A stretch of 63,350 nt of DNA, counting the filler, from Sluysia triapertura (lineage: Eukaryota), in NCBI GenBank assembly GCA_046118255.1. It is 5 parts of 5 records of this genome, joined end to end, with 100 filler letters (N's around TTAATTAATTAA, not from the genome) between each part and the next. Parts side by side here need not be neighbours in the genome. Positions count along the whole stretch, not along the records: positions 1 to 11,505 come from JBJNIA010183990.1; positions 11,606 to 27,362 come from JBJNIA010220024.1; positions 27,463 to 38,910 come from JBJNIA010184624.1; 2 more parts are not named here. The stretch is one strand, 5' to 3'. Shown here piece after piece: positions 2,535 through 36,852 of the stretch. Positions within the stretch are counted from its first letter, which is position 1; each line of letters opens with the position of its first letter. Below the pieces are notes generated by a model. The model saw nothing but the letters and a program-made list of their open reading frames with translations. It was not told the DNA's origin and made no database searches. The position numbers and the translations under genes are program-made.

Positions 2535-3312
2535 CTGTCTTGTTTTTTCCATGCTGATTGGACATCCAATCAAAAAGATAAAAAGAGAACAGTGCAAAAG
2601 ACCTGATTGGGTGTCCAGTGCATTTAGACTTATGTAAAGCTGATTTAGCACACCAAGATAATTCATCTCAATGAGTGCTTTCATCGGTAGATTTGGTACG
2701 AAAATGAAGTTTAATGAAATTGTCTAGCGATGACAGACATTTAACGCAAAATTAGTTGTTGGGTTTACAAATCACTGATAACAAAATGGTGATAATGTTA
2801 ATACTGATAATAATGATAATGGTAAAATGAGAATAGTTATAATATGATAATTAAAATTAGGTACTAGAATGAATTTAATGCATAAACTTTAATAATTTGA
2901 AACTTGATCTTTACTTCTAATTGTCTTATTTCTTCAAAATAAATATTAAAATTCTTGTTTCTTGAAATATAATAATTATTTAATTGCAATTTTTAAAGAT
3001 AAAAGTGAAATTGGTGTTGTTAAAGGTCTTACAAAGTGAATGTTGAAGAATTATGACTTTATAATTTATTTTCACAATTTCTATGATGATTTGAGATGTA
3101 ATTGTGTTTCTAATATTATGGGATTTGGATGATATTTTAAATGGATTTTTGAGTGTACTTTGATATTTTTGATTGTGAGTAAGGTTTGTATGTTGAAAGG
3201 TTTTGAATTTAAATGTTTTGAATATAAAAAATTGTTTTAATAAATTTTGATGACTGCCAAATTAAAATTGAAACCCGTTTGCTTTTTGTGTTTTGATTGG
3301 GCAGCCACTCAC
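2535..3312 (-). repeat. Twin-hairpin module, copy A
   Basis: TGATTGGACATCCAATCA (2555-2572) paired with TGATTGGGTGTCCAGT, a second inverted repeat at ~2680-2740, an AAT tract and a GT-rich body similar to 19150-19400. The start motif is degenerate. Confidence 0.65.
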
Positions 3313-3423
3313 AAGATTTTTCGTCAAAATTTCTTGTCAATTTTTGTTAATTCATAATAATAAAATTCATTTTAGTGATATTTAAGTCTACAACATCAAA
3401 TTGCACTTAATAATAAAGAAGAT

Positions 3424-4310
3424 ATGGAGCTTATATTAAAAGCTCTTACAGAATCAATATATGTTAGAGATACTTTTTCAAAATTAAGATTTCAATGCTT
3501 TTCAAATGATGAATTACATGGTATAATAACCCCAAGAATTAATGATACAGAAAGTTTTGAATTGACTACTCCATCATTCGTTGTAACTGATGGCCGCAGA
3601 TCATAAGTTCAATTTACAAAATATTGGAAAATAGATGCCGAAAGACGTGATTTAACTATTAATTCTTTAATTTAGATGAAGATGATTTTATATATGATTG
3701 ATTTGGTGGCATTAAAGATTTAGAAAATAATATCCGTTTTAATCGAATTCAAGAAGATTATTTAAGAATTTTACGATATTTCAGAATTTTTGGAAAAATT
3801 CCGGAAATATCCGATTCACACGTTGAAAAAATTAAACAAAAAGTCGATGGTGTTAAAAATATTAGTGGTAAACCTGTTTGGGCAGATGTGAGTAAAGTTA
3901 TTAAAGGTAGGCACGCATGTGATATATTGAAGCGAACGTTTGAAGTAAATTTATTTCCTTATATTGATTTAGTAAAAAATAATCTCGAAACTAAGAAAAA
4001 CGATTTTGTGAGTTTTATGAAAATTTGCAGAAAAACGATGCTCAAAGTTCGATTTGTTTACGATTAATTATTGATTATGAGAACAAAGTAGAAATTATTC
4101 ACAAACGTTTTAAGCTAAATAATGACTTATTTATTATGCGTTATTTATTGAATAAACGTGATTCGAATGTGACATTAAAGGATTTACAATAAGACTTCAT
4201 TATGTGGGAAAATAAAAAACGAATTCAACATGATCGATTTCAAATGTGTCAATTTGAATCGTTGAAATTATTAGGAAGACCAGAAATAATTGAAGAAATT
4301 AAAAATTGGA
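3424..4310 (+). pseudogene. TRNT1: CCA-adding tRNA nucleotidyltransferase pseudogene
   Basis: HGIITPRINDTESFELTT..VTDGRRS*VQFTKYWKIDAERRDLTINS / FGGIKDLENN / RIQEDYLRILRYFRIFGKI / ISGKPVWAD are class II CCAse motifs. Stops and frameshifts are present; the N-terminal DxD motif was not found. Confidence 0.9.
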
Positions 4311-5605
4311 AATCAGCGGCAGTAATACTCATTGAAGAATGGTCTTTAAAGGAGAACATTGTTCAAACTGATGCTTTTACTACCGGCACTCAAATGATAC
4401 GATCAGATCTGGATGATGAGTCACGACACTTCAAGTCTGTTGGTGTCTATATCCTACGACTCTAGATGGAAAATGTACAAGGTATGGTAGTAACTGTCTG
4501 TGTGCACACAATGCAGCTGAACTCACGGATAACTTCGCCTGGATGTCACACTTAACACATCATGATCATAGAATTCAACAACTCGTTCTGTCATTGAAAG
4601 AAATACCTTTGGACAATAACAAATATCATAACTTAAAAGTATTCATAATTTCTTAATCTAACCATATTTATACTTTTATAATTCTTTTATTATTCCGTAA
4701 TATTTTATAGAAACGTGGAAAGTTTGCTTATGAAACATGCCAAGGAAATAATATGCTAGAAACGAATTTCAAAATTAATTGACAATAAATTCTTAAATTT
4801 AAATATAATACATATTAATTGTTTTATTTATTCAATTAACCTTAAGAAATAATTTTGAAATAATTAAACTTACCAAAGAATATGTAAACTTTAATGTTCA
4901 GATTTTATTTAAATTTAAAAGTTATACAACTTCTATCAAAAAATTAGGACCATTCAATTCCTTTTGCTAACATTACCTTATCTAGTCAAAAACACATGGT
5001 ACTATGCCCATATCAATCGGACGTTTTTGGAATATGCATCATGTACGGCAAATCCTGCAGTTTTTACCACAATGTTCTTCAAATGAATGAAAGTGGACGC
5101 GAATCAAGAGATCATAGGCAAATAATGTACAATCTATTGACTTCAATACGTTCAATTCATCTTGGCACAAGGTCTTCAAAAAACATTTTCAACTTGATAA
5201 CACTAATTCATGTTAGTTAGCAAAATTTCTATTAAAGTAATTGAAATTTTCTTTACCTATGTTGATTGCTTTTATTTTTATTATTTATATTTTAGGATTC
5301 TACAACTGAAAAGATCCAGCACGTGCCAAAATATATTTAGACTAATATTTAACCAAATATTTTTGACAATAAATGTAATAAAATTTCCTTGTTATATATT
5401 TAATAATAAAATTTCACTTTTTTCCTTATGTACTCATTTTAATAAGAATATAATGAAAGAAATTTTAAAAATAAATTTAATTAATTTTAATAAATGAATA
5501 AACTTTTATAAATTAAATAACATTTTAAACTATTTAATTTTAAATATCATTTAACCCCAAAAGGTCCAATGGACCTGTGTGATATGCAATACATACATAC
5601 TTTTT

Positions 5606-5623
5606 TGGTAGCCAGAAGGTTAA
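5606..5623 (-). mobile_element. piggyBac-like terminus
   Basis: Minus strand reads TTAA-CCTTCTGGCTACC, similar to the ends at 27534 and 50587. Confidence 0.3.
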
Positions 5624-6447: not shown

Positions 6448-6471
6448 CAGTGGTGTCAAACACGCGGCCCG
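6448..6471 (+). mobile_element. hAT (Buster/SPIN-type) left terminal repeat
   Basis: CAGTGGTGTCAAACACGCGGCCCG, upstream of and co-oriented with the hAT transposase relic. No partner TIR found. Confidence 0.55.
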
Positions 6472-7899: not shown

Positions 7900-9495
7900 A
7901 AAATAAAAAAAAGATCAATACAAGACGAACACAGAATTTTTCAACCAAGACGGAAGTTAAATTACTTTTTTATAGAGCTAAAAGATAAAGTTTCATATTT
8001 AATTTGTAAACAGACTATAAATGTTTTGAAAGAATATAATTTAAAACACCAATATGAAATGCATAAAAATATATGCAATATACGGGAAAATTAAGAGAAG
8101 ACAAGTTAAAAAATTAAAAAGTGAACTTAAGTCACAACAATCATTTTTAAAAATCGTTTGAAAACACCGAAGGTCAAGTTCAAACTAGTTTCATTATTTC
8201 AGAACTTATAGCCAAACGTGGAAAATGTTTCACAGACGGTGATTTTGTTAAGGAGTGCATGTTAAAAACTGCAGAAATACTCTTTCCCGAAAAGGTCAAA
8301 ACTATTCAAGGCATTTCACTATCAAGAAATTGTGTTGCTGAGAGAATTAATATCGCTACTAATATAAGTTAAAATCTTGAAAATAATTTGATAAATATTC
8401 AACATGTTTCAATTGCAATTGATGAAACTACAGATATTACCGATCAAGCGCAACTTGCTATCTTTATTCGTGCTTGTGACAAAGATTTTACTGTGACTGA
8501 AGAACTCCTCGACATTTTATCTCTTAAATACAAGTCAAGACATTTTTGAATCCGTCGACGAGCTTTTAAGTAAATATAATCTTCCTTTATCTAAATTAGT
8601 TCGTGTAGCTACAGACGGTGCGAAAGCAATGGCAGTAAGAAAAAATGGATTTAGAGCAAAATTATTAGCTAAAGAGCACGTCATTTTTTCCGATAACCAA
8701 TTTCACCCTATTCATTACATCATATGAGGAGATACTGTGTTCGAAAACGTTCTTCAATTTGTCAAAAAACTATAAATTTTATACGAGGTTTGAATCAGCG
8801 ACAATTTTCATCTTTACTGTCAGAATTGAAAATAAACATGATGGCTTAAATTATTATACAAAATTGGGTTGGTTTTCTTCACACAAAATTTTGATGAGGT
8901 TCTGGGAATTTCGTAATGAGATCAAAACATTCTTAAAAATGAAAGATCAGTCAGTTGAACAATTTAAAGATAAAAATTGATTTAACCTCTCTAACCGATA
9001 TTACAAGACATTTTAATGAGTTAAATTTAAAACTTCTTGGTCGAAATAAAGTTATCACACAGATGTGGGAGTTTATTAAGGCATTTAAATTAAAAATCGC
9101 AATTTAGAAAAAACTAAAAATTGTGATTTAGTTTATTTTCCCGCTTGTAAAAGTTATAAAGAATCATATATTTATTTAATTTTGTCAAATATACTTCATA
9201 TTTTGACGATCTGTTGTTAGAATTTGAAATAAGATTTTACAGTTTTCAAGCATGTGAAGAGGATTTGTTGTTCAATGCGCCATTTTCGTATAATGCTGAA
9301 AAGCAAGCAGCAAAGTGCAAATGGAGTGCAAACTATAACGAAGTAGGCGTACCCGAGTTTTATTCGTATTTGCCTGAAAACTTTAATTAAATGCGACTGT
9401 TTGCTTCAAGAATTATTGCGATATTTGGAAGTACTTATTTATGTGAACAGCTTTTTTCTTTGCTAAAAATCAATAAATCATCACAGAGATCACAT
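7900..9495 (+). mobile_element. Decayed hAT transposase (Buster/SPIN, GTF2IRD2-like)
   Basis: IAKRGKCFTDGDFVKECML, ISLSRNCVAERI, IAIDETTDITDQAQLAIFIR, VATDGAKAM, RFWEFRNEIKTFL, FGSTYLCEQLFSLLKINKS, with many frameshifts. Confidence 0.92.
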
Positions 9496-9989
9496 AGTAT
9501 TATTATAAAAATCGTCACATAGTATTATTAATAGTAAATTATTAAAAGTAAATTATCTCTTAAATTACATAAAATATTATATTTTATTTGCTCGTTTTTT
9601 ATAACTTGATAAATAAATATTCAATAAAACACAGGTTCCAGACTAGAACTCAAAATTTGAACTTTTATCTCAACCGACCAAATAGATTCAAAAGTACTTA
9701 TTATAATGTATAAACTTCAAGATATTTAGTTTCAGAAGCTAAAATAAAGTAAAAAATTATCTTACGGTATGTCTAAGTCAAAAATAATGATATATCTGTT
9801 TAATGTATATTTACAATAACTAAATGAATCGATATAACAAACGAGTTAAATCAAGGCACCATTAATTTTATTATTTTCTGGATTTTCTATACATTTGTTG
9901 CTTTTAATATTAATTATTGTTTTTTATTAATATTAATATAAAATAATAAAGCAGGTTGATAATTTAATTTTTAATTATTAACTATAACT

Positions 9990-13084: not shown

Positions 13085-13785
13085 CTATTTTTTGCTGTCT
13101 ATTAATTCATTTCTGAAATCATCAAAAATTTGAAAGTCAAGTTATTATGCACTAGAAAGTATCTTTCCAATTCTTTTAAATAATGTACAGCATCTGCATA
13201 TCCAATCTCTGGCTCATCTTGTACTGTTTCCTCATGTTCAACAAGTTTGTTTAAAGGTTCCTGGAAAGCCATATCATCAATATTGAAATCTGCACACTTT
13301 GGGAAGTCATTCCATTCAGATATTTCAGAAACATCCATGTTGGTATGCGGTAGAGCTATATTATTAACTTCATTTTATGGAATTATGTCTGCATTATATC
13401 CTCTCCAATTATCAAATTCATGTCTAAAACAGCTGGATACAGTTTCTAAGCTAATTGAGTTCCATGCATTTATTATGAGCGGAAGGACATCAACTAGGCG
13501 AGTTTTTTTAATTGGTTCCTCATATGTAATGGTGTCATCTTCAATCTCTATAGTCATATTTCTTATAAAAGTTTTTGTGTAATGAGGTTTAGCTGTTTTC
13601 ATAATTCATTGACCAAGGGGCTGGATTTTGGAAGTACACATTATGGAACACCTCATCAGTACTGGAGCATTGTCGAGTAATAAGATTTTCCTTTTTCATT
13701 TTCTCATTAAGATTATGTAACCACCGGCCAAAAGTTTCACAGGTCATCCAAGAATTTTTGTTAATCCACAATTTCAGAATTACAA
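13085..13785 (-). mobile_element. Decayed pogo/Tigger DDE_1 transposase (C-terminal half)
   Basis: NKNSWMTCETFGRWLHNLN, LDNAP, SKIQPLGQ, AWNSISLETVSSCFRH, YADAVHYLKELERYF. Confidence 0.85.
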
Positions 13786-14612
13786 TTTGCATCTTAAACT
13801 ATCAAATATACATCTTAAAATCAATCCGAAACTTTTCAAGTTTACAATCTTTTAACATTCAATATATAATATCGCCGAAAAACATTAAATTCATACTTAA
13901 AACCATTTTAAACATTGCAATAAAAATAACATTCCTTTAACAATTTTAGTTATCCATTATTTCCTTTAAACATTCTCTTATCAGCTCTTTCCATAATTCA
14001 TAACTTTGTAATCACCAAATAAAGTCTCATTCAAAGGAAATATGAATCAAAACTAATATTGCAAAATTTATCTAGAGAAGTAAATGAACTATTGTCATAG
14101 TCAAAAGCTAAAAGAAATTCATAATTTTATCTAGAAAACTTTAATATAACAAAGATGAAAAGAACATCATTTGCGTAACTTCATTTATTTATATTTCAAC
14201 TAAAGAAATTTCATAAGTTAAAATTTTCTACAGGATTTTAAAAGAATTTTATTAAGTTTATGTTTAGAAGTATTAAGGTTTAAAAGAATCAAGTTCGTGT
14301 AACAAGTAAACAAAAGATTTATGCGGAATTTTCATAGAATTTTATTATTATTATTTTTATTTCAATTATCTATTTTATTATAATAATTATTATTAATATT
14401 AGTACCATATTTTTAATTAACATCTCAACTAATTTTAATTCATTGTCTGTCATCAGTAGACAGCTTAATTAAAGCTAATTCAACATTTCATGTCTACTGT
14501 CTACCGATGATAAATACTAATTGAAATCATTTTGGCTATAACTTGATTGGACTCCCAATTAATACTAATTTTGTACATTATATCTCTTATGGTATTGGAC
14601 ATCAAATCACTC
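13786..14612 (+). repeat. Twin-hairpin module, copy B (5'-truncated)
   Basis: CA-rich body. IR1 TGTCATCAGTAGACAG/CTGTCTACCGATGATA (~14448-14512); IR2 TGATTGG.../ATTGGACATCAAATCA (~14544-14609). Confidence 0.6.
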
Positions 14613-14757
14613 GTAAATAATAATCTCATTAACTAATAAAAATTATAAAAATCAGAATGCAGAAAAATAGTTACCACAAGTATTAAACAAAAAAGTTAAA
14701 AAATATAAAAATTTAGTTATTAAAAAAGACTCATTAAAAACTCATCTTACAAAAGTA

Positions 14758-16100
14758 ATGAATATCTCTGATAACTCAATAAATGATAACGACAATACTA
14801 ACATAAAATTAACTGAATTTCAAAACCGACGTTTGTTATCATTTCCAAGTAAAAATTGTAATCAGAATTTAATGCCTCATTTAATATGTACTTTATTAAG
14901 CGATGTTGATTATCATACAGTTTATTATGTAATGTCATTATTGAACATAAAGCATTGTCAATGTTTAGTATATGAATTAAAAGTTTCACATAATAAGCAA
15001 GTAATAACTTTTGATGTTGATACTTGCGAATTAATAGAAAACCAAGATTTATGAAAGTTAATAAAATTTATTCATTGTAAAACTCAATTTATAAAGATCT
15101 TCAATAATATTTCGTTAATATTTGCATTATTTGTTACCATTATTTTAAAGAACCAAAATGAATACTCTATACAACATTATACCAAAAATGCTCTTCAAAT
15201 TACGTCAAATGTTTAACCTACTCATTGTTTCTCAATGCATCAATAAAATTTTTGTTAATTAATTCCAGATTAACATTTAGTAAATTGATAGATAACTATA
15301 TCATATCCAAAAGAGTTCCTTCTTAACTTTGATGCTGCAAGTCTATTTTCTTTAAATGATCAAAATTTAATCTTAATGATATTCAATTAGTATTCTATAA
15401 ATGTGTCATGATGAAAAGTTCCCATGAGTATATTCAACAATATTGTTCAAGTGATAAGATGTATTATGACGTTTCTGCTAAAAGCGAAGATCAAGCATTA
15501 AAGATCGAGTTCTGTTATTGAAATTACAACTTGTAAAAAATCATGATAAATGAATGAATGTGAAGGAAGCTTCAAAATTAGAAAATGCTAATGTTCATCT
15601 ACTAAAAGAGTTGGATAGCCCGCAGTATATACTGAGTCATATTATGACGCTATTTTGTACAGCATCATCAATGAATTCAAGAGATTTTCAATTAGTTCCA
15701 CCACGGCTAAATATGATCCTTTATCCAAAGTCAAAGGTTTTAAACCAATCTATTTCCAAGTCATTCTTCGACACAATTTCTAACAATCAATTACGAACAG
15801 TACAATGCACCAGCGAACTCGATTCTTCTAATAAATGAATAATTTATGGATTACACTGCATAATATTGATTTCATTACATATTTGAAATCAATAACAACC
15901 ATGAAATAGCGTCAGAACATAGAATAAGAGTGGATAATTTGGTAACATCACTAAAACATGGAGTTCGACAATCACGCAGACAAGTCAATGCAATCACGCA
16001 GACAAGTCAATGCAATCACGCCAGATGACATCTACATAGACATTGACATTATTCATGAAGAATCTGCAAAGAGCTGGAAATATATCCGATCATAGTTGTA
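14758..16100 (+). pseudogene. Unidentified decayed gene following module B
   Basis: Co-oriented ORF pieces (14758-15054, 15554-15838) with coding-like text between them. 22-bp tandem duplication at 15969-16020. Confidence 0.4.
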
Positions 16101-17429: not shown

Positions 17430-17880
17430 AATATCCCCCCAATAGATCAGGTTTTTGAAAATTTTCTTAATTAGTTTGAGTGTATTTTGTATTTTAACTC
17501 TGGGCCTTATAGTTTCTAAAGAATGAAACTTTTGTAATATGGCATAAAGCCTAGCTGAATAATCTGATTATTCACCTATTAATAACAAATAATAAAAATA
17601 GTTAACATAAAGGATATACAAGTAAATATTATTTACCTTGACGTTGTGGTCCATTAAAATATTGCCAGACGAAGTGGTAGAGACAACTGTAATACTCTTT
17701 AGTAATTCTGTAATTCTTTGTAAGTGTATATTACAAGCTGCTTCACCTTCTTTGCAGATTGTCAATCCATGAACAGAATGAGCGTAGCCACAGATTATTC
17801 CATGCATTAAGGAAGTCCCTTTGTTGTCGGTAGACACATATCAGTTACACGAGCAATTTATATGCATACGATGTACAGGT
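17430..17880 (-). other. Unidentified exon-like fragment
   Basis: Higher-GC ORF 17568..17837 followed by GTAAAT...TTAATAG, a short intron-like sequence. Confidence 0.3.
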
Positions 17881-18599
17881 CCCAATATAGGAAATAATTT
17901 TATTTATGTATATCGAGTCTAACTCTTCACAAGAAACGATGATCATACTTTATTCTTTTGATAATTTTCTTTAATTTTGTCACTTATCACCTAATGCTTA
18001 TCACATAATGCTTAAGTATCATAGATACTTAAAACGTTATTGTAATATAATATTTATTTTCTTATATACCTGTTATAATAAAAATTCGTATAGTATTTAT
18101 TCACCATTATAATAAACTCTAAATTCATTTAAATTTTCTACACGAGAACAAATTAAAATAAGGTAAATACATAAAAAGGTGAATATACAAAACCAAATCC
18201 GAATTAATAATATAAATTAAAATTATATTTCAAGATTTTGAGAATTTTCGTTTAAAGCAACAAAATTAAGATTAATTTTAGTAGAAAACAAAAAGATCAG
18301 AATTATTAATCAATCCTAAATTGATTGGTAATCTTAAATATCGTAGAATATTCGTTGGGAAGTAACTAAAATTCGATAATGAATTTGTCGTATCCGAATT
18401 AATAGACTTAAAATTTATCAAGACTACGTTCAAAATATCTTTATTATTATAGAAAACCAAATTAATTGAATTTAATTTAAATAATTTATGAAATTATTTT
18501 TCAAATAAAAAAACACAGGATAAAAGAACATAACTTTATTAGAAATTCATATGAATACTACATCTATTATAAATATTATTAATTGTCTTACGAAATTAG

Positions 18600-19430
18600 T
18601 GTTTTCGTTGGACTTTGGGCATACCATCAGTCTTGTCAGTTGAAAATTCCTTAAATAAAAATAATTAAGTCAAATAATTGTCTATAATAAAAATTAAAAT
18701 TTTAATTGTGACGTTATTAGTAATATCGTAATCTATTAACGATTAGTGAAAGGCAATGTGGATTGTGATTGGATGTCCAATCAAATCAAAGCAACTGAAT
18801 CAAATAAAGAAATGGAATAGATTTAATTTTTGGTTTTGCGACTGTCAGTAATTGACAGTTAATACGATAATAAAGGCTTTATTTGAATTAAAACTGTCAC
18901 TTACTAGCAGTTGCTAATATAAATTGTGTAGTGATATTAAATAATGATGTTAATAATAAGACTAATAATAAAAATGACGATAATCATAATGAAATGTATT
19001 TTAAAATAATAATAATAATAATATAAAGTAAAATGACAATATAATACAAAAACTCTTTTAAATTCTTTCCTTACATGATACTTTCTTTTATTTCTTTATT
19101 AAAAATGATTAAGAAGTGTGAGTTTAATGTTTTTCAAAGAGGTTGATGATTGAGTGTGAAAGGATTGAGAACTTGAAATGTTTTAGATTAATTTTAAAAT
19201 GTATATTTGATAATTTGAGATGTAAATTGTGATTCTAATGTTGTGAAATTGTGAATTAAGAATGTTTTAAATGAAATTTAAAATGTACATTAATGTAAGT
19301 ATAATTTTGATGTTATGAGATTGTGAATTTACAATGTTTTGAAATGTAAAAAGGTTTTAATGGATCTGAAAAAATAGATATTTCATGTGAAGTGGTAATT
19401 TGAATTTTAAGTGAAAAGGTTGGCCACCAC
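18600..19430 (-). repeat. Twin-hairpin module, copy C
   Basis: Start TGTGGTGGCCAACC (rc at ~19418-19431); 23-bp inverted repeat 18838-18915 (19/23); palindrome TGATTGGATGTCCAATCA 18766-18783. Confidence 0.75.
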
Positions 19431-19989
19431 AATGACTCAAAATTTATTTTGTAAGATTTTTTTTATAGATTGAGTGTAATTAGTTTAATATAATGATTTT
19501 TTATCTAATGTATTCAGAATATTTTTTACGAGTTTAATTTAGAGATCTAGTTCGATACTCATCCATGTTCTTAGATTTGAATGCGTTAATTAATATTTTA
19601 TAAATTATTACTTTAAGCTTTCGCAAACTTACATCTAAATCCCACTCCGTGAGTATGAACAGATAGATTACAGTCTGTATTTTATCTCAAACAGAGGACG
19701 TATCTGTAAAAATATTAACAACGAAAAATATCGAAATTATATAACAAAAATATGATTTAAATAAACATAAGCTACAAAGACTATTTAAAAAAATCAACAA
19801 CTCAATACAAATTCTAATAGACTTACAGCAATTAAATTACTCGACAACTTGACAGAAAACATTTATGTATATAACTTTTTTTCTAATACTTAATTGAAAT
19901 TTTAAAATTGTGTTAACACAATTGTTAAATTTAATTAATTTAAATGGATTTTAAGTCTTAGAGATATAAGACAGTCCTTACGGAAAATC

Positions 19990-20783
19990 TATGGTGGCCA
20001 ACCTATTACATTAATAAAATTATATCCTAAATACTTTATACATTTCATCAGAAACATTCCTTTTACATAAGTTTTGCCAACATAACACTCACCTTCAAAA
20101 CCTACCTTTTACATTCTAAAATCAACATGAAACGATATTAAACTAAATCAACACATTGTATATAAAACCATATTCCCTAACATTTTAACGTTCCCATATT
20201 TATCTCTTTTACATCCACTAAAAACATCTTCATCCGTTAAAATCAATCAAACCCACAATCGCATAACATTCAAACCACAATTACATTCAAAACCATTAAA
20301 TTACATTAAAAAATTCATCTAAAATATTTTATTCTCCATTTCTCAACAATTCAATCACAATCACATTCGAGATTAACTAAAAAACATCTTCAAAGCAATT
20401 CAAACATTCGACATGCACGATCTTTTATCATTAAATCCTAACAACCAAACATGACTCTCTTTCAAAACATTAATGCACATTTATCACTCACTTTAACATT
20501 TATACTATTCCAAAGTCCTTAAGTCATAACCTTCTACACTCTATTAACATCTCCGGTTAGAAACATTATTTTATTCGCAACATCAATGTATCTGTAAAAT
20601 CCATGTAAAATAATTATACCATTTTTAAATATTTAAATCATAAGTTTCTACATCATAATTTTAACCTCTAAACCACCAAAGATATCTAGTTTTTTTAAAT
20701 AGATTGTGACATGTTCAGAAGGTAAAGACATAAAAGAAAGATCATGTTTAAGTCACAGAATACGGAATTTATGCGTTTTTGGG

Positions 20784-20821
<38 letters not shown>
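19990..20821 (+). repeat. Twin-hairpin module, copy D (3'-truncated at AAT tract)
   Basis: TATGGTGGCCAACC start; body 20090-20410 visibly homologous to 31180-31490; (AAT)n at 20785-20821. Confidence 0.75.
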
Positions 20822-21716
20822 TGTAGTGGCCAACACCCATAATTCAAAATTTTCTAAAATCTCACAACTTTTAAATCACAATCACACTTAACATCATCAA
20901 ATCACAACAACCAGTTCACAAAAAACATAACATCTAAATTAATCACATTTCACATTATCGAATTACATTAACTGATTCATCATAAACAACATTCGACATT
21001 TATATTATTTTAACAACATATCCATCTTAAACAACTCGTCTAATAGTCTCTACCATTCATCTCACACCATACTTTGACAATTAATACGAAACAATCCATA
21101 ACATTCACTCAAACCAAATTACAATCACAACACATAATATTTAAATCACAAATGTATTAACACCATCCAACAACATTAACAAGTACCTGAAACATAGAAA
21201 ACATTTACGCTACAATCACGAATCAATTACACTAATTCAAACCCATCGCTTCTACACATAGCCATTATCAACAATCCACAATAACATTGTAAATACGCTG
21301 AGATTTATCTCGTAATCATCTTTTAAATTTAATAAACCATAACCTTTTAACAAACTTCTCAAACCATTACATTCAATGTATAAACCGTATTTTCAATTAT
21401 AAAACTTAAATAAATCTCAAGAATTTATTCTAACATTCTTTATTTTACTTACAACTCAAATCATTCTCTCATTTTCATAAACTAAATTTAATACAGCTTT
21501 AAAGAATTCATTGCCTTATGATGAAGCAACAACGATAACTTAAGCATGGCATACCACGTTACCGTTGCTCCGTCACATAATTTCAATAGTGTTATTTCTT
21601 ATCTTATTTTAATATGTAAGAAATCAAGACATAGAAAAAAAAGATCATGTTTTTAAAGATTACAAGAAATTTTATGTGATTTACTTTTATTTGATAATAA
21701 TAATAGCAATATTATT

Positions 21717-21749
<33 letters not shown>

Positions 21750-21980
21750 GTTATTATTATTAACAAATTAAAATAAAATTAATTCAATGACGATCAATCT
21801 GGTTGGTACCATCATCAGTGTTGACACTATACGTTACATTTTTCATTAAAGTGCCACCACTGATGATGGTCAATCATCAGTTTTATCGGTCTTGATTTGC
21901 CATCAATATTTCTTGCACACCACCCAATCAGAGTTCATACTATTAAATATTCTTTCCGAGACTCTGATTGGGTAAGTTAA
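20822..21980 (+). repeat. Twin-hairpin module, copy E
   Basis: TGTAGTGGCCAAC start; ATT tract; IR1 21808-21870 (19/21); IR2 21922-21973 (13/13, ACCCAATCAGAGT). Confidence 0.8.
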
Positions 21981-22154
21981 ACAATATTAATTTTATCTAA
22001 TTAAAAAATTACAATAGTCACTCAATGTTTAATTTTCAATTTTGGTCCAACACATCTTTATCAAATACAAAAAACATTTACATTCGAATAGAATTATTTT
22101 TCTATGGTTTTCATGTGTGAATTTTAACGCCGAATATTGATTCAAATTATAGTT

Positions 22155-23159
22155 ATGGAAAAAAACTTCTACGAATCGATTGATTATTGAAAATTCTGTG
22201 AAATCATTTTATATCCAAGCTTTAGTAAAATGTACTAATGTTGCTAATGATATTTTAAAACCGAATAATAAATTGTTGGCGAAGAAATTAATAAAGGATT
22301 CTCATGAGTTTGATGAAATCTATCTAGATCAAAAACAAAAAGCAGAACAAACTACAAATGTATTATCTTTTTGTAATGACAATAAAGTTAACATTCAAAT
22401 AACTACTCTTTTTGATCTTTTCGAACATAATCAATGCAATTTTTGTAGTACTCTAGAGAGTCAGAATAGTTGTAATGAAGATTCGCGTAATGCAAACGAA
22501 GATAGTTTTTACTGTGAAACACTTAGAACAAATGCTTATAAAGAAGATAAAACTGTAAGTTATGATGAATAATAATGGGAATAGTCGATCCCATACGTCA
22601 AGTCTTAAAGATTTTACCGATTTAGTTAATAGTCGAAATCTAACAAAATCAACTCATCCGTTTGCCACATCTATGATATTATTTTCTAAAAAATTTTTAT
22701 CATTAATCAATCCACAACTAGTTCAACAAAAAACAGATCGAATATCCCAAATCATGAATGAACAGTTAGTTATTAAGAGAGTATTCGAAGACGAATTAGA
22801 TAGTTATGACAACAAAGATTTAGTCAGTAGTATACGGATTATGCATAATCTGCATAATATGTCAAAGAATTATAAATTTAAACTATTTAATCACTGTCTA
22901 CCAAAGCCGACCAAAGGCCAGCACTATAATGCAAAGGAACGCAATCGATTTGTCTCTAGACAGAGTAATGCATCGCTTTAGTTTAATATTAAAAATTTAT
23001 GCTACAAATGGTTTTAAGATCTATTTCTATAAGTTTATCATACTACAAATTAGTGGGATCAACCTAATACTCCAACGTCAACAGTTAACGACGTCATCAA
23101 CAGTCAATCGAGAAAACGATTTAATCATGAAAATTAATGAACAATACTTTTTGCGGTAA
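22155..23159 (+). pseudogene. Unidentified frameshifted gene following module E
   Basis: Three overlapping co-oriented ORFs (22180-22572, 22562-22981, 22929-23159). No family recognised. Confidence 0.4.
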
Positions 23160-23744
23160 GATATTATGTGTAAGATCTTATTCTATATCTTTGTTGATTT
23201 ATATTTTAGATAATGAAATTAAGGAATGGATCTAGTGAAAGAAAACATTATATTAAAATCTAAAATTGTCGTTTCATATAATAAATTTATTGTATTTAGA
23301 ATTATTATATTTATTTTAAAAAATGAAATATATACCTATATCAATTGTTTCCAGAAAATAGAATTTTATACTGTTACATAGTTAATAAAATAAAAACGAC
23401 TTCGAAACATAAGTCATTGACATTTAATGACTTAAACGATCAAACAAAACTTACATATAAATTTATATACATAATAGTAAACACGACTCATAACCTAATA
23501 GCGTCTCACTCTGTCATCCGTCAGAACCTTCTACAAAATTTTATTATTACCATCATTGACTTGCCTATTAGATCGCAACCTAAAAATCTGAAGTCAAACA
23601 TAAACTACTTATCAAAAATAGCTCGATTTTGTCTCTACAATACTAAATTATTAAAAACGTTATTAGTTAAAAATTCAAAAATCTACATATTAACATTTCA
23701 ATTTAAAACTATAAAACCTCCAAACTTGTGCATGGACCACACTA

Positions 23745-26466: not shown

Positions 26467-26479
26467 GTTTAAAATATTT

Positions 26480-26585
26480 TATGCGGTAAGGTGTTTAAAT
26501 GTTTAATTGGTTGTTGGTAATGTGTGATTTTTAATTGATTTTATAAATAAGAAATTTTAAGTAAGAAGGCTTACCCACCACACTA
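26480..26585 (-). repeat. Twin-hairpin module, 5' stub (copy I)
   Basis: rc TGTGGTGGGTAAGCC followed by a short CA-rich body, cut by the hAT end. Confidence 0.35.
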
Positions 26586-26819: not shown

Positions 26820-27257
26820 ATGAAAAGTTATGGACGTTTTCTAAAATTCTTCATAGAAAAGTATAATGTTGTTCAATTAAAGCGCGTTTTTCAAACTCTA
26901 ATTCAATATTGTTTTGGAAATAATTTCTGGAAAGAACTGACAAATTTGATGTTTCTAATTCCTGGTAATCAAATGTGGAAAGAAGTTCGTATTCGATTGT
27001 TTTTGAGACGGCTCTTTCTGGATCATGTAGACTTTTGCGGTGTCAAAATAAACGGGGAATATTTGAAACTAATTTGGAACATAGATGAAGAAAATCGAAA
27101 GGAATATGATGAAAATGACGATGAAAATGGCAATGAAAATGACAATGAAAATGAGAGTTTTATTGAAGAGAGTAAAACGTTTACAACTTCTGATGGCATC
27201 GAAAATGTTCAATTTGTAAACATCGATGAGATTATCGAATATAATAAAGTATTGTAA
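26820..27257 (+). CDS. Hypothetical protein with acidic D/E/N tail
   Basis: 145-aa ORF with coding-like composition; no family recognised. Confidence 0.35.
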   Translation: MKSYGRFLKFFIEKYNVVQLKRVFQTLIQYCFGNNFWKELTNLMFLIPGNQMWKEVRIRLFLRRLFLDHVDFCGVKINGEYLKLIWNIDEENRKEYDENDDENGNENDNENESFIEESKTFTTSDGIENVQFVNIDEIIEYNKVL

Positions 27258-30956: not shown

Positions 30957-31900
30957 TGTGGTGGCCAACCTTATAACCTTAACAAATTTTACTAAAATTC
31001 CGTCTTAAACATATCAAAATCTCACAAATCTTTAAAATACACACTACACATTTTAAATCTAGTAAAAACCAAGCCATCATATCTAAAATTATACCCTTTA
31101 ACAATATACCACAACCTTGTAAAATTCATCACAATTATTTTTATATTTCATTTCTTTGCAAATCCACAAAATCAAATACACCCTCAAAATCTACAATTCA
31201 TATTCAAAAATTAATATAAAACAATATCAAACTAAATCAACACATTGAACATAAAACCATATCCTTTAACATTTTAACATTCACATATTTATCCTCTCCA
31301 CATTCACTAAAACAGTTCATCTGCCAAAGTCAATTTATATTCACAATCTCATAACATATAAACCACAACGACATCCAATACCATCAATTTACATTAACAG
31401 ATTCATCAAAAATATTTTACTCGACATTCATAACAATCTAACGACAACCACATTCGAAATTATTTACCCAATACCTTCAAATCAATTCGAACATTTTTAA
31501 TTCAGCATTTGTTATCTAATTACCAACAGCACAAAAAACAATATCACTTAAAATTAGCAAGAGAATAAATTAGATTTTTAACATTATATAATCACCTTCT
31601 GAACATATCAAAGTTAGACTATAACTCATCTACTTTTATACGTCAAGCTACGCCTTTATAACATATTAAAAATTCATAATTTAATATTATCTTCAACCAG
31701 AAATAAGACTCCATGCAGAGTATTCTAACTTTCACACAAAAATCCTTTGCGTTTCAAAATATTTTTAATTCACATTAACAAATAGCATTAAGAAATTACA
31801 CTATACATTATAATTATTCCAAAGCACCAGCGTCACTATCACACCTTGAAGTCTTAACCAATACATTTGACATTAAGTCGTAACACCACAAATTCACTAT
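30957..31900 (+). repeat. Twin-hairpin module, copy F (5' part only)
   Basis: TGTGGTGGCCAACC at ~30957; AAACTAAATCAACACATTG..ATAAAACCATAT shared with copy D. Confidence 0.75.
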
Positions 31901-33763
31901 TTTTCAGGAGTCTTACTCTACGAATGTTTCTAATGTTCTATCTTTTACTTCATATCAATTTTTCCATTATTTGATAATTCTTTGTTCATTCTCCTTTACG
32001 GTTCCACAGTCGGGCAATACCAACAAATATATGTAATGAATTTTTAGTTGATTCTAATGATATTGATCATTAGTTCTGGATCTTACGATTGAGCGCATAA
32101 ATTATGCTTTAAAACTTGGTGTATAATTTGTTACACATTTTTTATTAGTACGTGTTCGGGGGATTTTATCACGCAACAGGGACATAATAAAAATTATCCA
32201 AATTATAATGGTAGGAATAAGTTTTGTATATTATTTTTGAAATCCCCCTTCGATTTTTTTAATAAGTGCGGAGAAATTCCCCTTGGATTTTTGTTTAATA
32301 TTATAAAATAGTTTTTAGGGAATTCCTTTTTAAATTAAATTAAAATAAGTTTTGTATATTGCGGTGTAAATTATAGATTGAATAATTTTAGGAATTAATT
32401 ATGAAGTATGTTTTTCATAAAATATAAGGATTAATATTGTTGCCAAATAAATTATGTTGTATAACCCTTAGAGTTGAATATATACTTTATAGCTTAGGAT
32501 TTCTATTTTATTTGATAATTAATGGAAATGCAGATTGTGAATAAAGTTTATTTTAAGGATTGTATTTAATCTTGTGATTATCGCAGTTTTTGATTATTTT
32601 GATTTTGTAATTCAGTTATTGTTAACAAATTTTATAAAAAAGATATGACGAATATTTAATTTTTTTGTGATTTGCTAATGTTGGTCGAAACATTTGTAGG
32701 ATTTTTAGTTTTAGATTTTAAATTCAAATCTTATTCCGTTGAAATAACAGTAGTATGTTACTTGACAATTGGTATTTATTTATTGAGATAAAGTTAAGAA
32801 TATATTGCTGAAATTAAAATGTAATTTAAATTTGAATAATTACACCAAAGTTTAATAATACTTTTACATTTATTTTAATATCAAAACCAACAGTATTGTG
32901 CAACATAAATAATGCATTTTATTCATAAATTGTTTTGTTTAATCTTCAAAAACCATTTGTTAGATAAATACGATATTAGTCTTGTAAATATCTCATTTTA
33001 AAGTTTTTTTTAATAAAAATTGTTAAGATCAACTAAACACTACGGATAAATTGTTTCCGGTTATACGTTGAAAATCAGATAATAGGGAATGTTTATGTGA
33101 CTTTTATAAATTGTACAAGATATTTAATGAACTCGAATTTACTATGTGAGAAATATTGTTCGACAAAAAATAACTAAATTCCCACATCCATAGACTACAT
33201 AGCTTGTTGTGAAAAGTTGATGATGTTTAAGATTGATAGATTATTGTTATTTTTAAAATTTAAATTTATTTTATTTTTAACTTTACAAAATTTAAAATTA
33301 ACTTTTATTAAAGATTCTCCGTTAGAATTTTTTAGTTCGAAACTAATTGTAATATCTTCCCTATACAGATATTGAAAATAAAACGTAGAGATTTATTTTT
33401 GAAAAATTTTGATTTTAATATTTGACTGTTATGTATGATACTTCTTCTGAATGTTCCTTTTGTAATGGTTGATGATGATTATTAAGTTTTGAATTAAATC
33501 TATGGTTTTTATTATCTTTATATTTTATATTATTTTTGTTTATTAAAAAAATTATGTTTTTGTCTTTCAAAACTAAAATATATGACTTCATTTTGTTGAA
33601 TGAAAAAGAAATAAACATTACAGAAAAATTTATTATTATTTATAAAAATATATAAAAATTTATTATTTTTTGTTTAGAATACAAAAGGCCGGATCCTACT
33701 TACACCTTCTAAGTTGTTATGTTCCCCATCTAAAAAAGAAATACAATTCATAATTTTATAGAT

Positions 33764-34486
33764 TTAAATAAAAGGATGAAATACTTGTTGTTTATTTTGA
33801 GTCGATTTAATGTCCGTAACACAAGGTTTTTGTGCAGTCCGACTATTCTCGAAGATTGATAACCACAAATTGACAATTCGTATGTTGTATGTGCATAAGG
33901 ACAATAACTTCTTTTTTTTAACACATGTATCGCATTCGTTAGTAGAGAATGGGCAAACTGTGATCATTTTAGCTTTAAAATCATCGTGTTTATAATCATT
34001 ATTATTGATATTGTAACTTTTAGCATTAAAATCATTGTCTTTATAAACATCATTATTGATATCGTAACTTTTAGTATTAAAATCATCGTCTTTGTATTGC
34101 TTAACATCAATACAGCAATTCTTATATCTTTCGATTCTATGATTATCAACTTTTTAATGTTTAACATAATTGTTATTATCTTTGTCTTTGTAGTACTCGA
34201 CGTCATTACTACTATCTTTACGTTCTTTAGCTTTAACATCATTAACTTCATAGTACTTAACATCGTTTAACAATTTAAAATTGATTACAATTAATTGTAC
34301 AAATTGAGACAAAATAATGCTACAAAAAATGGTTGAGAATACTCTCTTTAAAATTTTTATTGTCACCAAATTATGAAATTGAGTATAATTATTTTGTGCT
34401 AACTCTACCGTTTTAATTTTAATTTTTGAAACATCATAAAAGCAATTGTGATTAATAATTTTGTGAACCGTTATTTTTAAAATCAA
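33764..34486 (-). pseudogene. Asp/Asn/Lys/Tyr-repeat ORF with one in-frame stop, following module G
   Basis: ORFs 34154..34486 and 33764..33967 are in the same frame, 62 codons apart. The 51-bp tandem unit encodes YDINNDVYKDNDFNAKS. Confidence 0.5.
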
Positions 34487-34519
34487 TATACAAAATTTTT
34501 ATTGTTATTATGAGTAAAG

Positions 34520-35305
34520 CACTCTGATTTGTCGTCAAACCAGAGAAACATAAAGTAGCGATGATAACAAATAATGTGCATCAGCAAATGAACGAGAGAT
34601 AAACCACCACCTATGTTGACATTCATTTATACACAGTGATTAGTTATGTCAGCATGGATGGTGGTAATTGCTGATTTATTTCAAAATAAAAAACTTTTTA
34701 AAAATAATTAATAAAAATAAAAAATTAAAATGATAACAATAATAATACCAACAACAGCATTATTATTATTCTTATTACCACATAAATTCTTATTTCTTAT
34801 GTTAACACGACCTTTTCTTTTATGTTCTTTATTTTCTTGACATATTTGAATTTAGAGAAGATTAAATATGTGATAAAGATGAAGATAAAAAAGGTGATAA
34901 TGATAATAATAAACACAAAAAGTCTTTGTCTTGTAATTTAAACATAAACTTTCTTTTTTTGCTCATAAAGATATTATCAACATATTTAAATCTATTGAAA
35001 TAGGATAGCTTTTAAAGGAAAGATTATGAATTTATGATGTTAAATATCAAGATATGTTGAAAAGATTTGAAAGTGTCTACTGATTAGTTTCGAATGTGAT
35101 TGTGCTGGAATTGTTAAAAACTGAAAAATAAAATGTTTTGAATGATTTTTTTCTGTAATTTAATGGTTTGGAATGTAACTGTGATTTGAATTTTATGAGA
35201 TTGTGTATTTAGTTGGCTTTAACAGGTAAGATTGTTTTTAATGGATGTAAAAGAGAGAGTTATGAAAGTTTTCAAATGTTTAGAAGTATGGTTTTATGTA
35301 CAGTC
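34520..35305 (-). repeat. Twin-hairpin module, copy G (5'-truncated)
   Basis: IR1 34603-34665 (17/20); CTCTGATTTGTCGTCAAACCAGAG; GT-rich body homologous to 36590-36720 and to the rc of copy D. Confidence 0.75.
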
Positions 35306-35319
35306 ATTAGGGTTATCAA

Positions 35320-35870
35320 TGTTAGTATCACAATACTCGACTTAGACATTAATAACTTCGACACTGCCATCTTCAATATTGTTATTTTGTAAGTCGTTAT
35401 CTCTAATAATGCCAATCACGTTATACTGAAATTTAAAATCAAAATTATATCTCGAAAGTTTTTACTAATTTTACTAAATCATCACTAATTTTATTCTTAA
35501 CATTAATAACTTTATTGTTACATATTTGATAATTGTTATATTCATCATCATCAACTTTATTCTGACTATCTTTAGCAATCATAACTGGAACATTACCATC
35601 TTTACTATTTTCGATTAGGTTAAAGTTAACTTTATAATTGCATATTTGATAATTGTTATATTTATCATCATCAACTTTATAATGATCATCTTGAGCATTA
35701 ATAACTTTAACAGAAAACTGTTTATAGTCATCACATTGTATGAACATAATCAGAATCCAAGACCAATTTTATCACTGTTGTCAAATTTTTTAAAACTACC
35801 ATACAAAAATCTTTATTGCCAATCTCTGTAATTGCTGCCTAATTTTTGTTAGCAATGTTATTTTTACTCC
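35320..35870 (-). pseudogene. Second Asp/Asn/Lys/Tyr-repeat ORF, following module H
   Basis: ORF 35445..35747; the block KVDDD(K/E)YNNYQICN recurs at a 120-bp spacing. Confidence 0.45.
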
Positions 35871-35944
35871 ACCAGTTTTTTGTTAGAAATCTAATCTTAA
35901 AAATTGTGAAATTTTTATTGTCGTACAAAATTTTTAACCTGTAA

Positions 35945-36852
35945 CTTGATTGGTTGTCCAACCAGGAATATATAAAATTACTGAAGAATTCATTCTGGTT
36001 GGACAACCAGTAATAATGTTCAATCTAAGTGACTGAGAAATGAGCCATCATCAATGTTGACGTGAATTAATAGGCAGTAATCAGCAATGTCAACATTGAT
36101 GGTGGTAATCACTGATTTGCTTGTAAATTAGCAGTTTTAAATAAAATAACATTAATAACAATAATGATAAAAATGGTAATAATACAATATTATTATTAAT
36201 GCTTTACGTGATCTTACTTTTATGAATCTTAATTTTCTAGAAATTTCAAAAGTTAAAAGTAAAGAAGAAAACAATATTTTCTTGTATCTTTAATTTTTCT
36301 TATATATTTAACACTCTTAATGATACTTCCGCCTAATGTTAATTGTAAATAATTTTAGGTCTTAAATATTTTGAGGCACTATGTATGTGGAAGTTAGAAT
36401 ATACTTTAATGTTCTAAATATGATGTTTCTAGCTAAAATGTTATTAAAATGGTTATGACTTAAATACTATGAAATAGTGTAAACGTTAAAAAGAGTAATG
36501 AATGTACACTAGTGTTTTGAAAGAAAGTAATGTTAAACTGTTGGGATTAAATGGTACAAGATCGTGAATTTAGAAAGTTTGGATTGTTTTGAAAATGTCT
36601 GTTGATTAATTTCGAAAGTGATTGTGCTTGAATTGTTAAAAAATGAAAAATAAAATATTTTGAATGAATTTTTTATTGTAATTTGATGATATTAATGTCA
36701 CCGTAATTTATATGTTACAAGGTTGTAGATTTTAGGAGTAAAAGTTGTGTTGAGTAAAACTTATGTAAAAAGGATGTTTTGATTAAGTGTTTTGTGAATA
36801 TGTTATACAAATTTTTAATAAAATTTATTAAGAAAATAGTTGGCCACCACAC
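35945..36852 (-). repeat. Twin-hairpin module, copy H (most complete)
   Basis: rc TGTGGTGGCCAAC at ~36839-36851; IR1 36045-36105 (16/17); IR2 TGGTTGTCCAACCAG/CTGGTTGGACAACCA (15/15). Confidence 0.8.

Follow-up and report, generated by a model that had tools for sequence, protein, structure and literature searches.

The window, meaning the whole stretch of DNA analyzed here, comprises 63,350 nt from five contigs of Sluysia triapertura (GCA_046118255.1). On contigs 1 to 3 it holds eight arms (A to H), copies of a module of ~0.7 to 1.2 kb. For every arm, a profile built from the remaining seven found the one left out (30 to 158 bits; E ≤ 4e-10); the top score in the reversed window, which served as control, was 16.4 bits, and non-arm matches were AAT-type microsatellites of at most 13.4 bits. 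A ninth short tip (I, at 26582 on the minus strand) is weak (E = 0.37) and resembles arm C (1 of 200 shuffles). The repeated module is real, and the ~9 copies on three contigs counted in the first-pass annotation correspond to the eight arms recovered by left-out profiles plus this weak tip. The copies are clustered: three contigs are arm-dense, and a profile search of the other two (contigs 4 and 5) found no arms. The order of parts proposed earlier was borne out as well, running from tip through CA-rich body and AAT tract to the inverted repeats IR1 and IR2, with a conserved box between body and AAT tract.

Two arms are complete, E (20822..22020, plus strand; IR1 21808-21870, IR2 21922-21973) and H (35900..36851, minus; IR1 36045-36105, IR2 35951-36009). 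On the outer side of tip H, 128 bp away, is an intact ORF for a DEDDh exonuclease. Arm A (2500..3310, minus; IR1 2678-2736, IR2 2555-2617; left-out E = 8e-13) lacks a canonical tip; at its outer end lies site J (3294..3313, unstranded), a lone IR2-like or tip-like palindrome that is not a significant hairpin by itself. Arm B (13758..14640, plus; IR1 14450-14510, IR2 halves 14544-14610; left-out E = 4e-10) has lost its outer end against a pogo/Tigger-type DDE_1 remnant. Arm C (18720..19431, minus; tip at 19431; IR1 18838-18914, IR2 18766-18783) carries a 72/84-bp subrepeat. Arm D (19990..20821, plus), with the tip TATGG, stops in its own AAT tract, where E begins. Arm F (30957..31900, plus) consists of tip and body only and faces G and H, while G (34470..35305, minus; IR1 34603-34665, IR2 34522-34545) is missing its outer part and forms a tandem with H, offset by 1522 bp. 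Tip I (26470..26582, minus) is a short, weak arm remnant cut by a hAT-like end and facing D and E.

Six tips share one exact starting base next to flanks that are unrelated, and this boundary is sharp (mean pairwise identity of 0.87 over +1 to +13, compared to 0.36 upstream). They start with TGTGG, TATGG, or TGTAG (TG in five, TA in one), and the preceding base is T in three of six. The start TGTGGTGGCCAAC reported earlier was found with at most two mismatches in five of eight arms (C, D, E, F, and H) but not in A, B, or G. The claimed strand bias of the body held throughout, with a GC skew of −0.40 to −0.69 on the cargo strand in A to H. An ungapped test for the body subrepeat gave a clear result in C, a marginal one in D, E, and F, and a negative one in A, B, G, and H; profile matches are repeated within the bodies of A, C, and E.

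The hairpins also stood up, with exceptions. IR1 exceeded all 30 shuffles in six of six copies. The best IR2 hairpin failed to do so only in B; it exceeded them in A, C, E, G, and H, by a small margin in C and G. The CCAAT ascribed to IR2 is missing from that of G. No hairpins were found in D or F. Nine of the 11 strongest inverted repeats of the window fall inside arms, and fold z-scores (cargo strand, RNA parameters) ranged from −2.7 to −5.6 for B, C, E, G, and H, with only −0.8 for A. Both repeats consist of GC-richer inverted arms around AT-rich spacers of ~23 to 33 bp, mostly 59 to 63 bp in total. Among the three sequences E, G, and H, 6 of 24 pairs changed on both sides, and IR1 mismatches are mostly A-C on the cargo strand, which become G-U on the other strand. 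A core, RTTGG-N3-4-CCA, is present at tips and IR2 halves alike. Of its 16 occurrences in the window, 15 fall in the arms, which make up 11.5% of that length; the motif was picked after these sites had been seen.

Herpesvirus and baculovirus origins combine a repeat body with paired dyads. The arms may be read likewise, as replication-origin or enhancer modules of a large or segmented extrachromosomal element or endogenous virus with host-derived accessory genes; the paired ~60-bp dyads, pairing retained as the sequence changes, the strand skew, and the exonuclease ORF beside tip H are consistent with this. We consider it very unlikely, however, because no capsid, polymerase, Rep, integrase, or viral gene domain was found on contigs 1 to 3, no far junction is conserved among the matches listed, arm H matched no phage genome (a weak control), and covariation from three sequences could arise neutrally by template-switch correction of near-palindromes. 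Common regions of integrated circles, another earlier candidate, likewise find no support: no viral gene was found on contigs 1 to 3 and, among the matches listed, no shared far end.

Behind the arms, the longest downstream ORF lies on the co-oriented strand at seven of seven sites (A, B, C, E, G, H, and J), in agreement with the co-orientation noted earlier; at six of them it exceeds all 200 shuffles, the exception being C. These cargos measure 0.4 to 1.5 kb, are strongly diverged at the protein level, and all arm-driven ones in the window are broken. The PSD assignment at A was confirmed (PSD/Sec7; Pfam E = 2e-30): the cargo (1269..2108, minus) is a decayed intronless PSD/EFA6 piece comprising Sec7 and then, by eye, a diverged PH-like start. 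Its Sec7 has Lys where matched sequences have the catalytic Glu. Because this copy has a long branch (1.0, compared to a median of 0.11) and yet retains ORFs of 130 to 150 codons, there are hints that the cargos evolved as proteins before these copies decayed. Some 70 to 90 bp beyond site J, a decayed intronless CCA-adding enzyme (TRNT1-like; 3379..4310, plus; E = 7e-15 and 8e-12) runs, at a junction placed by eye, into U1, an Unkempt-type zinc finger and helix (4385..4770, plus; zf-CCCH_UNK E = 8e-5; candidate intron 4639-4710). A second Unkempt-type gene, U2 (4984..5340, plus; E = 9e-4; candidate intron 5237-5295), is next.

The cargo of B (14671..15965, plus) opens with a Dachshund homology box (14671-15051; E = 2e-8), continues through a middle without identity, and ends in a degenerate Unkempt-type finger and helix (15776-15965), weak, with a sole Pfam match at E = 0.13. 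At C (17500..18668, minus), only an intron acceptor and last exon follow IR2, with no gene start; this orphan exon (18600-18668) is similar to the last exon of U2 and precedes the Unkempt-type gene UC (Pfam E = 0.003; candidate intron 17636-17576, minus). An alignment of 63% over 214 bp (E = 7e-5) supports the assignment of this locus. The cargo of E (22153..23260, plus) has N-terminal ORFs without identity, a probable degenerate finger/helix (22763-23010) similar to UB and UC in hand-picked pieces, and a candidate intron (23156-23209); Pfam scans of it gave no informative match. The cargo of G (33700..34440, minus) is a D/N/K/Y repeat ORF with a 51-nt unit, followed by finger, helix, and candidate intron (33784-33730); its finger, C-x9-C-x6/7-C-x3-H, spans one frameshift and has no Pfam match of its own. 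That of H (35330..35770, minus) is a D/N/K/Y-rich ORF cut off by arm G.

The cargos of B, E, and G share one zinc-finger/helix module at their ends, and across the sites the Unkempt type accounts for at least three finger remnants with a Pfam match, one more connected to them through alignment, and two weaker cases; behind A and H, the search detected none. The best PDB match of a four-piece finger profile was Unkempt ZnF3 (E = 2e-4). Five candidate GTA..AG introns of 54 to 72 nt come after the finger/helix at a shared position. The Unkempt-type parts lie behind variable ones, namely the Dachshund box, the CCA-adding enzyme, and the D/N/K/Y repeat. A different cargo gene at each site, as first proposed, is thus half right: the parts vary, but the common Unkempt-type module was overlooked, and the "three unrelated unknowns" proved largely identifiable and related, including the Dachshund box of B and the Unkempt-type genes of C.

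These genes bear on two further readings. The arms could be the promoter-plus-gene cassette of an expanded host Unkempt-derived family, spread by local duplication and inversion, with processed copies landing behind the promoter and no transposon involved. The clustering of arms, the tandem genes (U1-U2, orphan exon-UC), the promoter-like makeup, and the shared intron position all agree with such a cassette; nevertheless, duplication with random breakpoints would not make six copies start at the same base, nor does it fit that E begins exactly inside the microsatellite of D, and we regard this reading as quite improbable. Alternatively, the arm could be the LTR or leader of a retroelement, host mRNAs having replaced gag-pol. 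The TG start of five of six tips, a potential primer-binding site with the motif TGG, arm parts readable as a CA-rich leader with hairpins for packaging, and the G-U pairs formed by IR1 mismatches on the other strand can be cited for it, as can, indirectly, the intronless Sec7 and CCA-enzyme cargos, since the relative P0001 has apparent exon borders at two places that the window copy crosses uninterrupted. Planarian Burro elements, giant and gypsy-like, carry many accessory domains in the available account (PMC6431247). This candidate of the first-pass annotation is nonetheless disfavored and highly unlikely: in the 550 bases upstream of the tips, only one of nine pairs (H/I) exceeded all 60 shuffles (36, compared to a mean of 25), arguing against an LTR before the primer-binding-like motif, and five cargos keep sense-strand introns. 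In addition, no polypurine tract was seen by eye, no gag, reverse transcriptase (RT), or integrase is linked to the arms, and the arms have no tRNA or Rfam match. The co-oriented D-E and H-G are truncated tandem copies rather than bounding direct repeats.

A feature not considered in the first-pass annotation is the relative orientation of the arms: in three pairs 5.7 to 5.9 kb apart (B-C, 5674 bp; E-I, 5761 bp; F-H, 5895 bp), they point toward one another, as would be expected of long terminal inverted repeats. On contigs 2 and 3, each plus-strand arm has a minus-strand arm to its right, and the cargos of facing arms converge. Paired arms are 69 to 75% alike where aligned, one partner being weak, and the bodies of B and C are reciprocal best matches (score of 140). 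Facing arms enclose the Dachshund box and Unkempt-type fingers; the Sec7 and CCA-enzyme pieces are found behind the unpaired arm A and site J. As first reported, no target site duplication (TSD) was found: none of 4 to 25 bp in three of three testable pairs against a random-pair null. Nor did scans of contigs 1 to 3 reveal a MULE, P, or integrase-type transposase, again in line with the first-pass annotation, although these scans are insensitive and missed decayed hAT-like and RT-like remnants that are visible by eye.

The main rival is a one-ended rolling-circle element of Helitron or Helentron type, the arm being a fixed 5′ end with promoter, the far end varying as replication passes the terminator and picks up downstream DNA, and the facing pairs being chance clustering. 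A single precise end with no TSD and, among the matches listed, no shared far end is what such an element would leave, and the tandem and truncated arms (D-E, H-G), the introns and bare last exon in cargo, as DNA-level capture would give, and the strong strand skew, which could reflect single-stranded replication, all fit. Capture by Helitrons is usually modeled as read-through of the terminator in the available text (PMC6431247). Helitrons, however, end in 5′ TC and 3′ CTRR with a short subterminal hairpin, and the Helentron-type alternative has subterminal inverted repeats at a TT site. Here, the tips are TG or TA, the other reading ends in CCACA, the hairpins are ~60 bp and lie ~0.5 to 1.1 kb inside, T precedes only half of the tips, and no RepHel domain was found in the window. 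Moreover, the variable part is flanked by the promoter and the resident finger instead of occupying the far end. The Helitron candidate is unlikely and lacks its defining ends.

The preferred reading, to which we assign a probability of roughly 45%, is that these are non-autonomous DNA transposons with long inverted arms carrying inward promoters, like Galileo/foldback elements or Pack-MULEs. The module would be one arm of an old family with modular terminal inverted repeats of ~0.9 to 1.2 kb, two inward-facing arms enclosing ~5 to 6 kb. A transposase from elsewhere would cut at the 13-bp tip, which starts with TG or TA, and perhaps also bind the similar palindrome in IR2, the inner end. That end would double as an inward RNA polymerase II promoter made of the AAT tract and inverted CCAAT-like boxes; in the available text, planarian tissue-specific promoters show an excess of CCAAT boxes and of A/T trinucleotide repeats (PMC10558129). 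A gene descended from zinc finger 3 of the host Unkempt, with helix and short intron, would be resident in the family, and other host gene pieces would have been copied in between promoter and resident part, probably by template switching in gap repair and in some cases from spliced templates, yielding chimeric genes whose pieces may once have formed single reading frames. Recombination between copies could later have left some arms in tandem, others solo or mismatched, and erased the target duplications.

The core motif common to tip and IR2, the sharp tip, the facing pairs, and the B/C reciprocity argue for these transposons. Against them stand the missing TSDs in three of three pairs, although a TSD can be lost in old or recombined copies, and arms that are not homogenized within pairs: F is nearer D (286) than H (108) or G (115), and the hairpins of B resemble those of A, not C. 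Tip I is weak, the tip of B is lost, and no partner of A can be seen. Chance may explain the similar spans, since E-I holds a hAT-like insertion and F-H the tandem arm G, and a simple promoter does not account for ~60-bp hairpins with covarying arms. Taken together, the data suggest that an ancient mobile element took up host genes and recombined them; the earlier idea of a non-autonomous gene-carrying element with a portable promoter fits, while its LTR variant is disfavored and its circle variant finds no support.

A bolder and quite unlikely version is an undescribed class of flatworm selfish element acting as a gene-fusion factory, the arm being both origin or transposase target and promoter, with a constant Unkempt-derived RNA-binding finger and swapped host domains. 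The paired 60-bp dyads with the tip core, and host domains diverged or catalytically altered (the Dachshund DNA-binding box, the CCA-adding enzyme, and Sec7 with Lys for the catalytic Glu), would fit it. If true, the products would have been tethered effectors that influenced how host genes are controlled during the active period of the family. Since all arm-driven cargos in the window are broken, the present biological effect is limited. The host genome looks like that of a flatworm. Planarian genomes are described as repeat-rich and quickly rearranging in the available text (PMC11410931).

Among known systems, Burro of planarians and the Terminons of rotifers are, in the text available, large mobile elements with host-like accessory domains, DEDD-type exonucleases included in Terminons (PMC6431247); the present elements differ in having no RT, gag, env, or hammerhead (none in the arms in an Rfam scan to E ≤ 1, whose single chance lncRNA match lies outside them) and other cargo domains. 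Ginger, IS3EU/GingerRoot, and IS481EU have TG..CA or TA..TA termini that match the TG/TA tips, but IS3EU/GingerRoot make 6-bp TSDs and IS481EU TSDs of ~4, 15, or 25 bp, according to the available text (PMC10045372); TSDs of 4 to 6, ~15, and ~25 bp were absent here, and no integrase-like transposase appeared in scans. Helitrons and Helentrons differ from the present arms in their TC/CTRR ends, short terminal hairpin, and RepHel. Shared with the arms are the lack of TSDs, one conserved end, gene-fragment capture, and chimeric tandem ends, in that literature as available (PMC6431247). Galileo of Drosophila, as described in the available text, has TIRs that reach ~1,260 bp and contain tandem repeats, also occurs as solo TIRs, and includes chimeric copies whose TIRs diverge and which lack TSDs (PMC3573991). 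The present arms resemble it in their length of ~1 kb and in their solo, two-arm, and chimeric copies; internal repeats are clear in C and marginal in D, E, and F. Galileo differs in its P-type transposase and 7-bp TSDs in most copies, neither of which our scans found, and the available part of its literature mentions neither captured host genes nor twin 60-bp dyads (PMC3573991). In plants, DNA transposons with terminal repeats are well known to capture genes. Promoters reside in MULE TIRs, which can flank captured genes in tandem (PMC3310237, available text), and Pack-MULEs, multi-TIR MULEs, and Pack-TIRs share with the present family captured chimeric host pieces and, on the preferred reading, long promoter-bearing TIRs, tandem TIRs, and non-autonomy. 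Captured host gene fragments are present between the arms, but Pack-MULEs and Pack-TIRs are defined with TSDs (9 to 10 bp in Ssk-FB4), and TSDs of ~9 to 10 bp exceeded the random-pair null in none of three pairs. The animal cases in the available account are mostly small and single-copy, with a median Pack-TIR cargo of 224 bp (PMC8277862), compared to 0.4 to 1.5 kb here, where the cargos mostly share a resident Unkempt-type module. A family with kilobase-size cargos and different host domains joined to one finger would be a clear case of domain shuffling in animals.

The dispersed repeated module proposed in the first-pass annotation proved real: a profile built from any seven of its copies (arms A to H) recovered the eighth at 30 to 158 bits (best reversed control, 16.4 bits), and self-BLAST matched arm to arm at 69 to 82% identity. 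The arms lie at 2500 to 3310 (A, −), 13758 to 14640 (B, +), 18720 to 19431 (C, −), 19990 to 20821 (D, +), 20822 to 22020 (E, +), 30957 to 31900 (F, +), 34470 to 35305 (G, −), and 35900 to 36851 (H, −). There is also a short ninth tip, I, at 26582 (−), as well as an isolated palindrome, J, at 3294. The sharp 13-bp tip that forms the outer end was carried by C, D, E, F, and H and was degenerate in I; identity across these six tips was 0.87 inside versus 0.36 immediately outside. Arm bodies were poor in G on the cargo strand, and a conserved AG-rich box and an AAT tract lay upstream of the hairpins. Arms C and D stand back to back across 558 bp (19432 to 19989) holding no recognizable gene; arm A and site J also have a back-to-back arrangement.

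Near the inner end of the arms are two inverted repeats, IR1 and IR2. IR1 (paired segments of 14 to 24 bp) scored above all 30 shuffles in 6/6 copies. A, E, and H have IR2 as another long dyad, and C and G have it as a short palindrome; that of B was not significant against shuffles. Nine of the 11 strongest inverted repeats of the window fell within arms, namely, eight hairpins and the AAT/TTA tract of E. IR1 occurred as three sequence types (A/B, C, and E/G/H); within the last type, both sides had changed in 6 of the 24 predicted pairs, in a small sample of three sequences. The CCAAT motif previously assigned to IR2 is usual among the copies but missing in G. A core, RTTGG-N3-4-CCA, was common to tips and IR2 halves, with 15/16 window matches in arms, and was defined after the sites were seen. 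Rfam and tRNA scans of the module gave no match, and the hairpin sequences differ among copies, which led us to reject a conserved microRNA in IR1. That the arms served an extrachromosomal or viral element as origin modules is quite improbable; arm H had no match in phage genomes. Elsewhere, a strong GC-containing inverted repeat (score, 20; loop, 20 nt) lies at 59852 to 59909, and an intron of an amino-acid transporter gene holds an inverted, strand-skewed repeat pair (53811 to 53906 and 56049 to 56140; 75% over 96 bp) that did not match the arm profiles.

The longest open reading frame (ORF) downstream lay on the arm's strand at 7/7 sites, bearing out the reported co-orientation, and the annotated PSD cargo (a decayed coding remnant) was likewise recovered behind A, as PSD/Sec7. 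Behind J come a CCA-adding enzyme and, after it, two finger genes; B leads into a Dachshund box; the ORF of H is truncated by arm G. The claim of a different cargo at each site needs correcting chiefly in one respect: an Unkempt-type finger module is common to most cargos. Three finger pieces matched Pfam zf-CCCH_UNK, all below its curated cutoff (E, 8 × 10−5 to 3 × 10−3), and a fourth, behind G, aligned with them (0/1000 shuffles against U2, the second finger behind J, and likewise against the finger behind C). The best PDB match of the joint four-piece profile was Unkempt finger 3. Weaker copies were seen at the ends of B (sole Pfam match at E 0.13; no PDB match) and, weaker still, of E (on hand-picked pieces only). 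In a search with the four-piece profile, the helix behind B was the best nontraining match yet stood at noise level (10.5 versus 10.4 bits), and the E copy was not recovered. No finger was found behind A.

Candidate GTA..AG introns of 54 to 72 nt followed 5/6 fingers; none was seen after that of B. In C, IR2 directly precedes an intron acceptor and a last exon resembling that of U2, after which comes a full finger gene, and this order points to a DNA-level rearrangement. The Sec7 and CCA-enzyme pieces are uninterrupted by introns, which may point to spliced templates for both. That the arms are a retroelement leader is very improbable. Joining the variable part to the finger takes one frameshift in G, one at the junction of the CCA-adding enzyme with the first finger behind J, and several in B, and we infer that the two were once one reading frame. 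Amplification of a gene family appears improbable as an account of the module. Small-GTPase-like motifs were noted by eye in the middle of B's cargo (15055 to 15518, +), unsupported by Pfam or PDB. On contig 4, a broken Dopey N-terminal gene copy (40458 to 40954, +) has no arm upstream, so host-gene remnants occur without the module too.

The Sec7 cargo reads GKTQ at about 1870 to 1890 (−), where 137/150 relatives read GE.Q (the other 13 did not match that pattern), placing Lys at the catalytic Glu. Glu-to-Lys at this site is a known dominant-negative change in Sec7 domains. One G-to-A substitution in an already inactive copy would account for the Lys equally well. The strongly diverged copy fell into an 8-row clade (support, 99/95) in a tree of 60 rows, comprising the window copy and 59 of the best 60 of 150 matches. 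We take the proteins of this clade to be flatworm-like from their sequence style, and together with the window's GC content of about 27% this would make the host flatworm-like. Planarian genomes exceed 70% A/T (PMC11410931, excerpt). Converging on the PSD cargo is a decayed, apparently intronless EZH2-like fragment (399 to 1074, +) with an MCSS domain (Pfam E, 1 × 10−5 to 3 × 10−5); only the MCSS piece was confirmed, its upstream stretch (399 to 755) finding no PDB support. The fragment could be cargo of a since-lost arm that once paired with A.

The five contigs, joined by N spacers, differ in setting: contigs 1 to 3 mix the module with other transposon debris, and contigs 4 and 5 carry ordinary animal genes by Pfam (TIR-SAM, the amino-acid transporter, and the Dopey remnant). 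The TIR-SAM gene (48476 to 50131, −; TIR protein domain, then SAM) has a higher GC content (∼41%). Immediately outside tip I is an open frame of 163 codons that includes an acidic tract (26766 to 27254, +), for which an atlas search gave only low-recognition ankyrin-like leads. An intact 362-codon frame (36980 to 38068, −) ends 128 bp outside tip H, with no visible arm driving it; its C terminus is a DEDDh exonuclease (ISG20L2/REX4-like; E, 7 × 10−5), and its N-terminal half had no identified match. Atlas search returned RNase_T clusters, and single-sequence structure prediction gave a pLDDT of 30. Word-index homolog searches were empty for this frame, a transporter exon, and the finger alignment, weak negatives since the conserved transporter was also blank.

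Every + arm of contigs 2 and 3 faces a − arm lying to the right of it; the pairs span 5674 bp (B-C), 5761 bp (D/E-I), and 5895 bp (F-G/H), and D-E and H-G stand in tandem. B and C were reciprocal best matches by body, F was nearer to D than to H, and the hairpins of B resembled those of A. As first annotated, no target-site duplication (TSD) was found, here in the three testable facing pairs, and arm masking left no shared far end among the matches listed. The transposase domains detected on contigs 1 to 3 were pogo/Tigger-type remnants only: part of a DDE_1 domain lies directly against the broken end of B, and part of an HTH domain at 38524 to 38721. Nested insertion, of E into D or of B-C into a Tigger-type copy, was rejected because the expected remainder was missing beyond the far tip. 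Five stretches of decayed transposons (7900 to 9500, +; 11700 to 12800, −; 13100 to 13757, −; 25900 to 26467; and 38400 to 38720, +) hold Pfam pogo/Tigger-type DDE_1 and HTH pieces as well as, by eye, hAT/SPIN-like and non-LTR reverse transcriptase-like remnants, and a hAT-like end truncates arm I. A one-ended rolling-circle element is possible but unlikely. A DNA transposon with long terminal inverted repeats (TIRs) and inward promoters would be the simplest single account of arms and cargos, and we tentatively prefer it, at a probability of about 0.45.

The module is a variant of the gene-capturing transposon, an already known kind of system, and the first reading misdescribed it in part. 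In the titles and abstract openings searched, we found no description of this particular anatomy, in which twin 60-bp dyads and a tip-related inner palindrome go together with an Unkempt-type 3′ module that stays constant while the host-derived 5′ parts are exchanged, and none joining planarian with unkempt; planarian repeat libraries may already hold the family as an unclassified repeat. The element behaves like a Pack-TIR or foldback element yet fails the TSD test, and the window alone does not allow it to be assigned to a superfamily. In the source excerpts compared here, gap filling together with template switching is the explanation given for animal Pack-TIRs (PMC8277862), Galileo TIRs reach ∼1,260 bp and the family includes solo arms as well as chimeric copies that lack TSDs (PMC3573991), and in MULEs the captured genes are surrounded by TIRs that bear promoters and occur in tandem (PMC3310237). 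AAT repeats and CCAAT boxes mark tissue-specific promoters of planarians (PMC10558129, excerpt), and the TG/TA tips of the arms resemble the termini of integrase-like DDE families (PMC10045372, excerpt).
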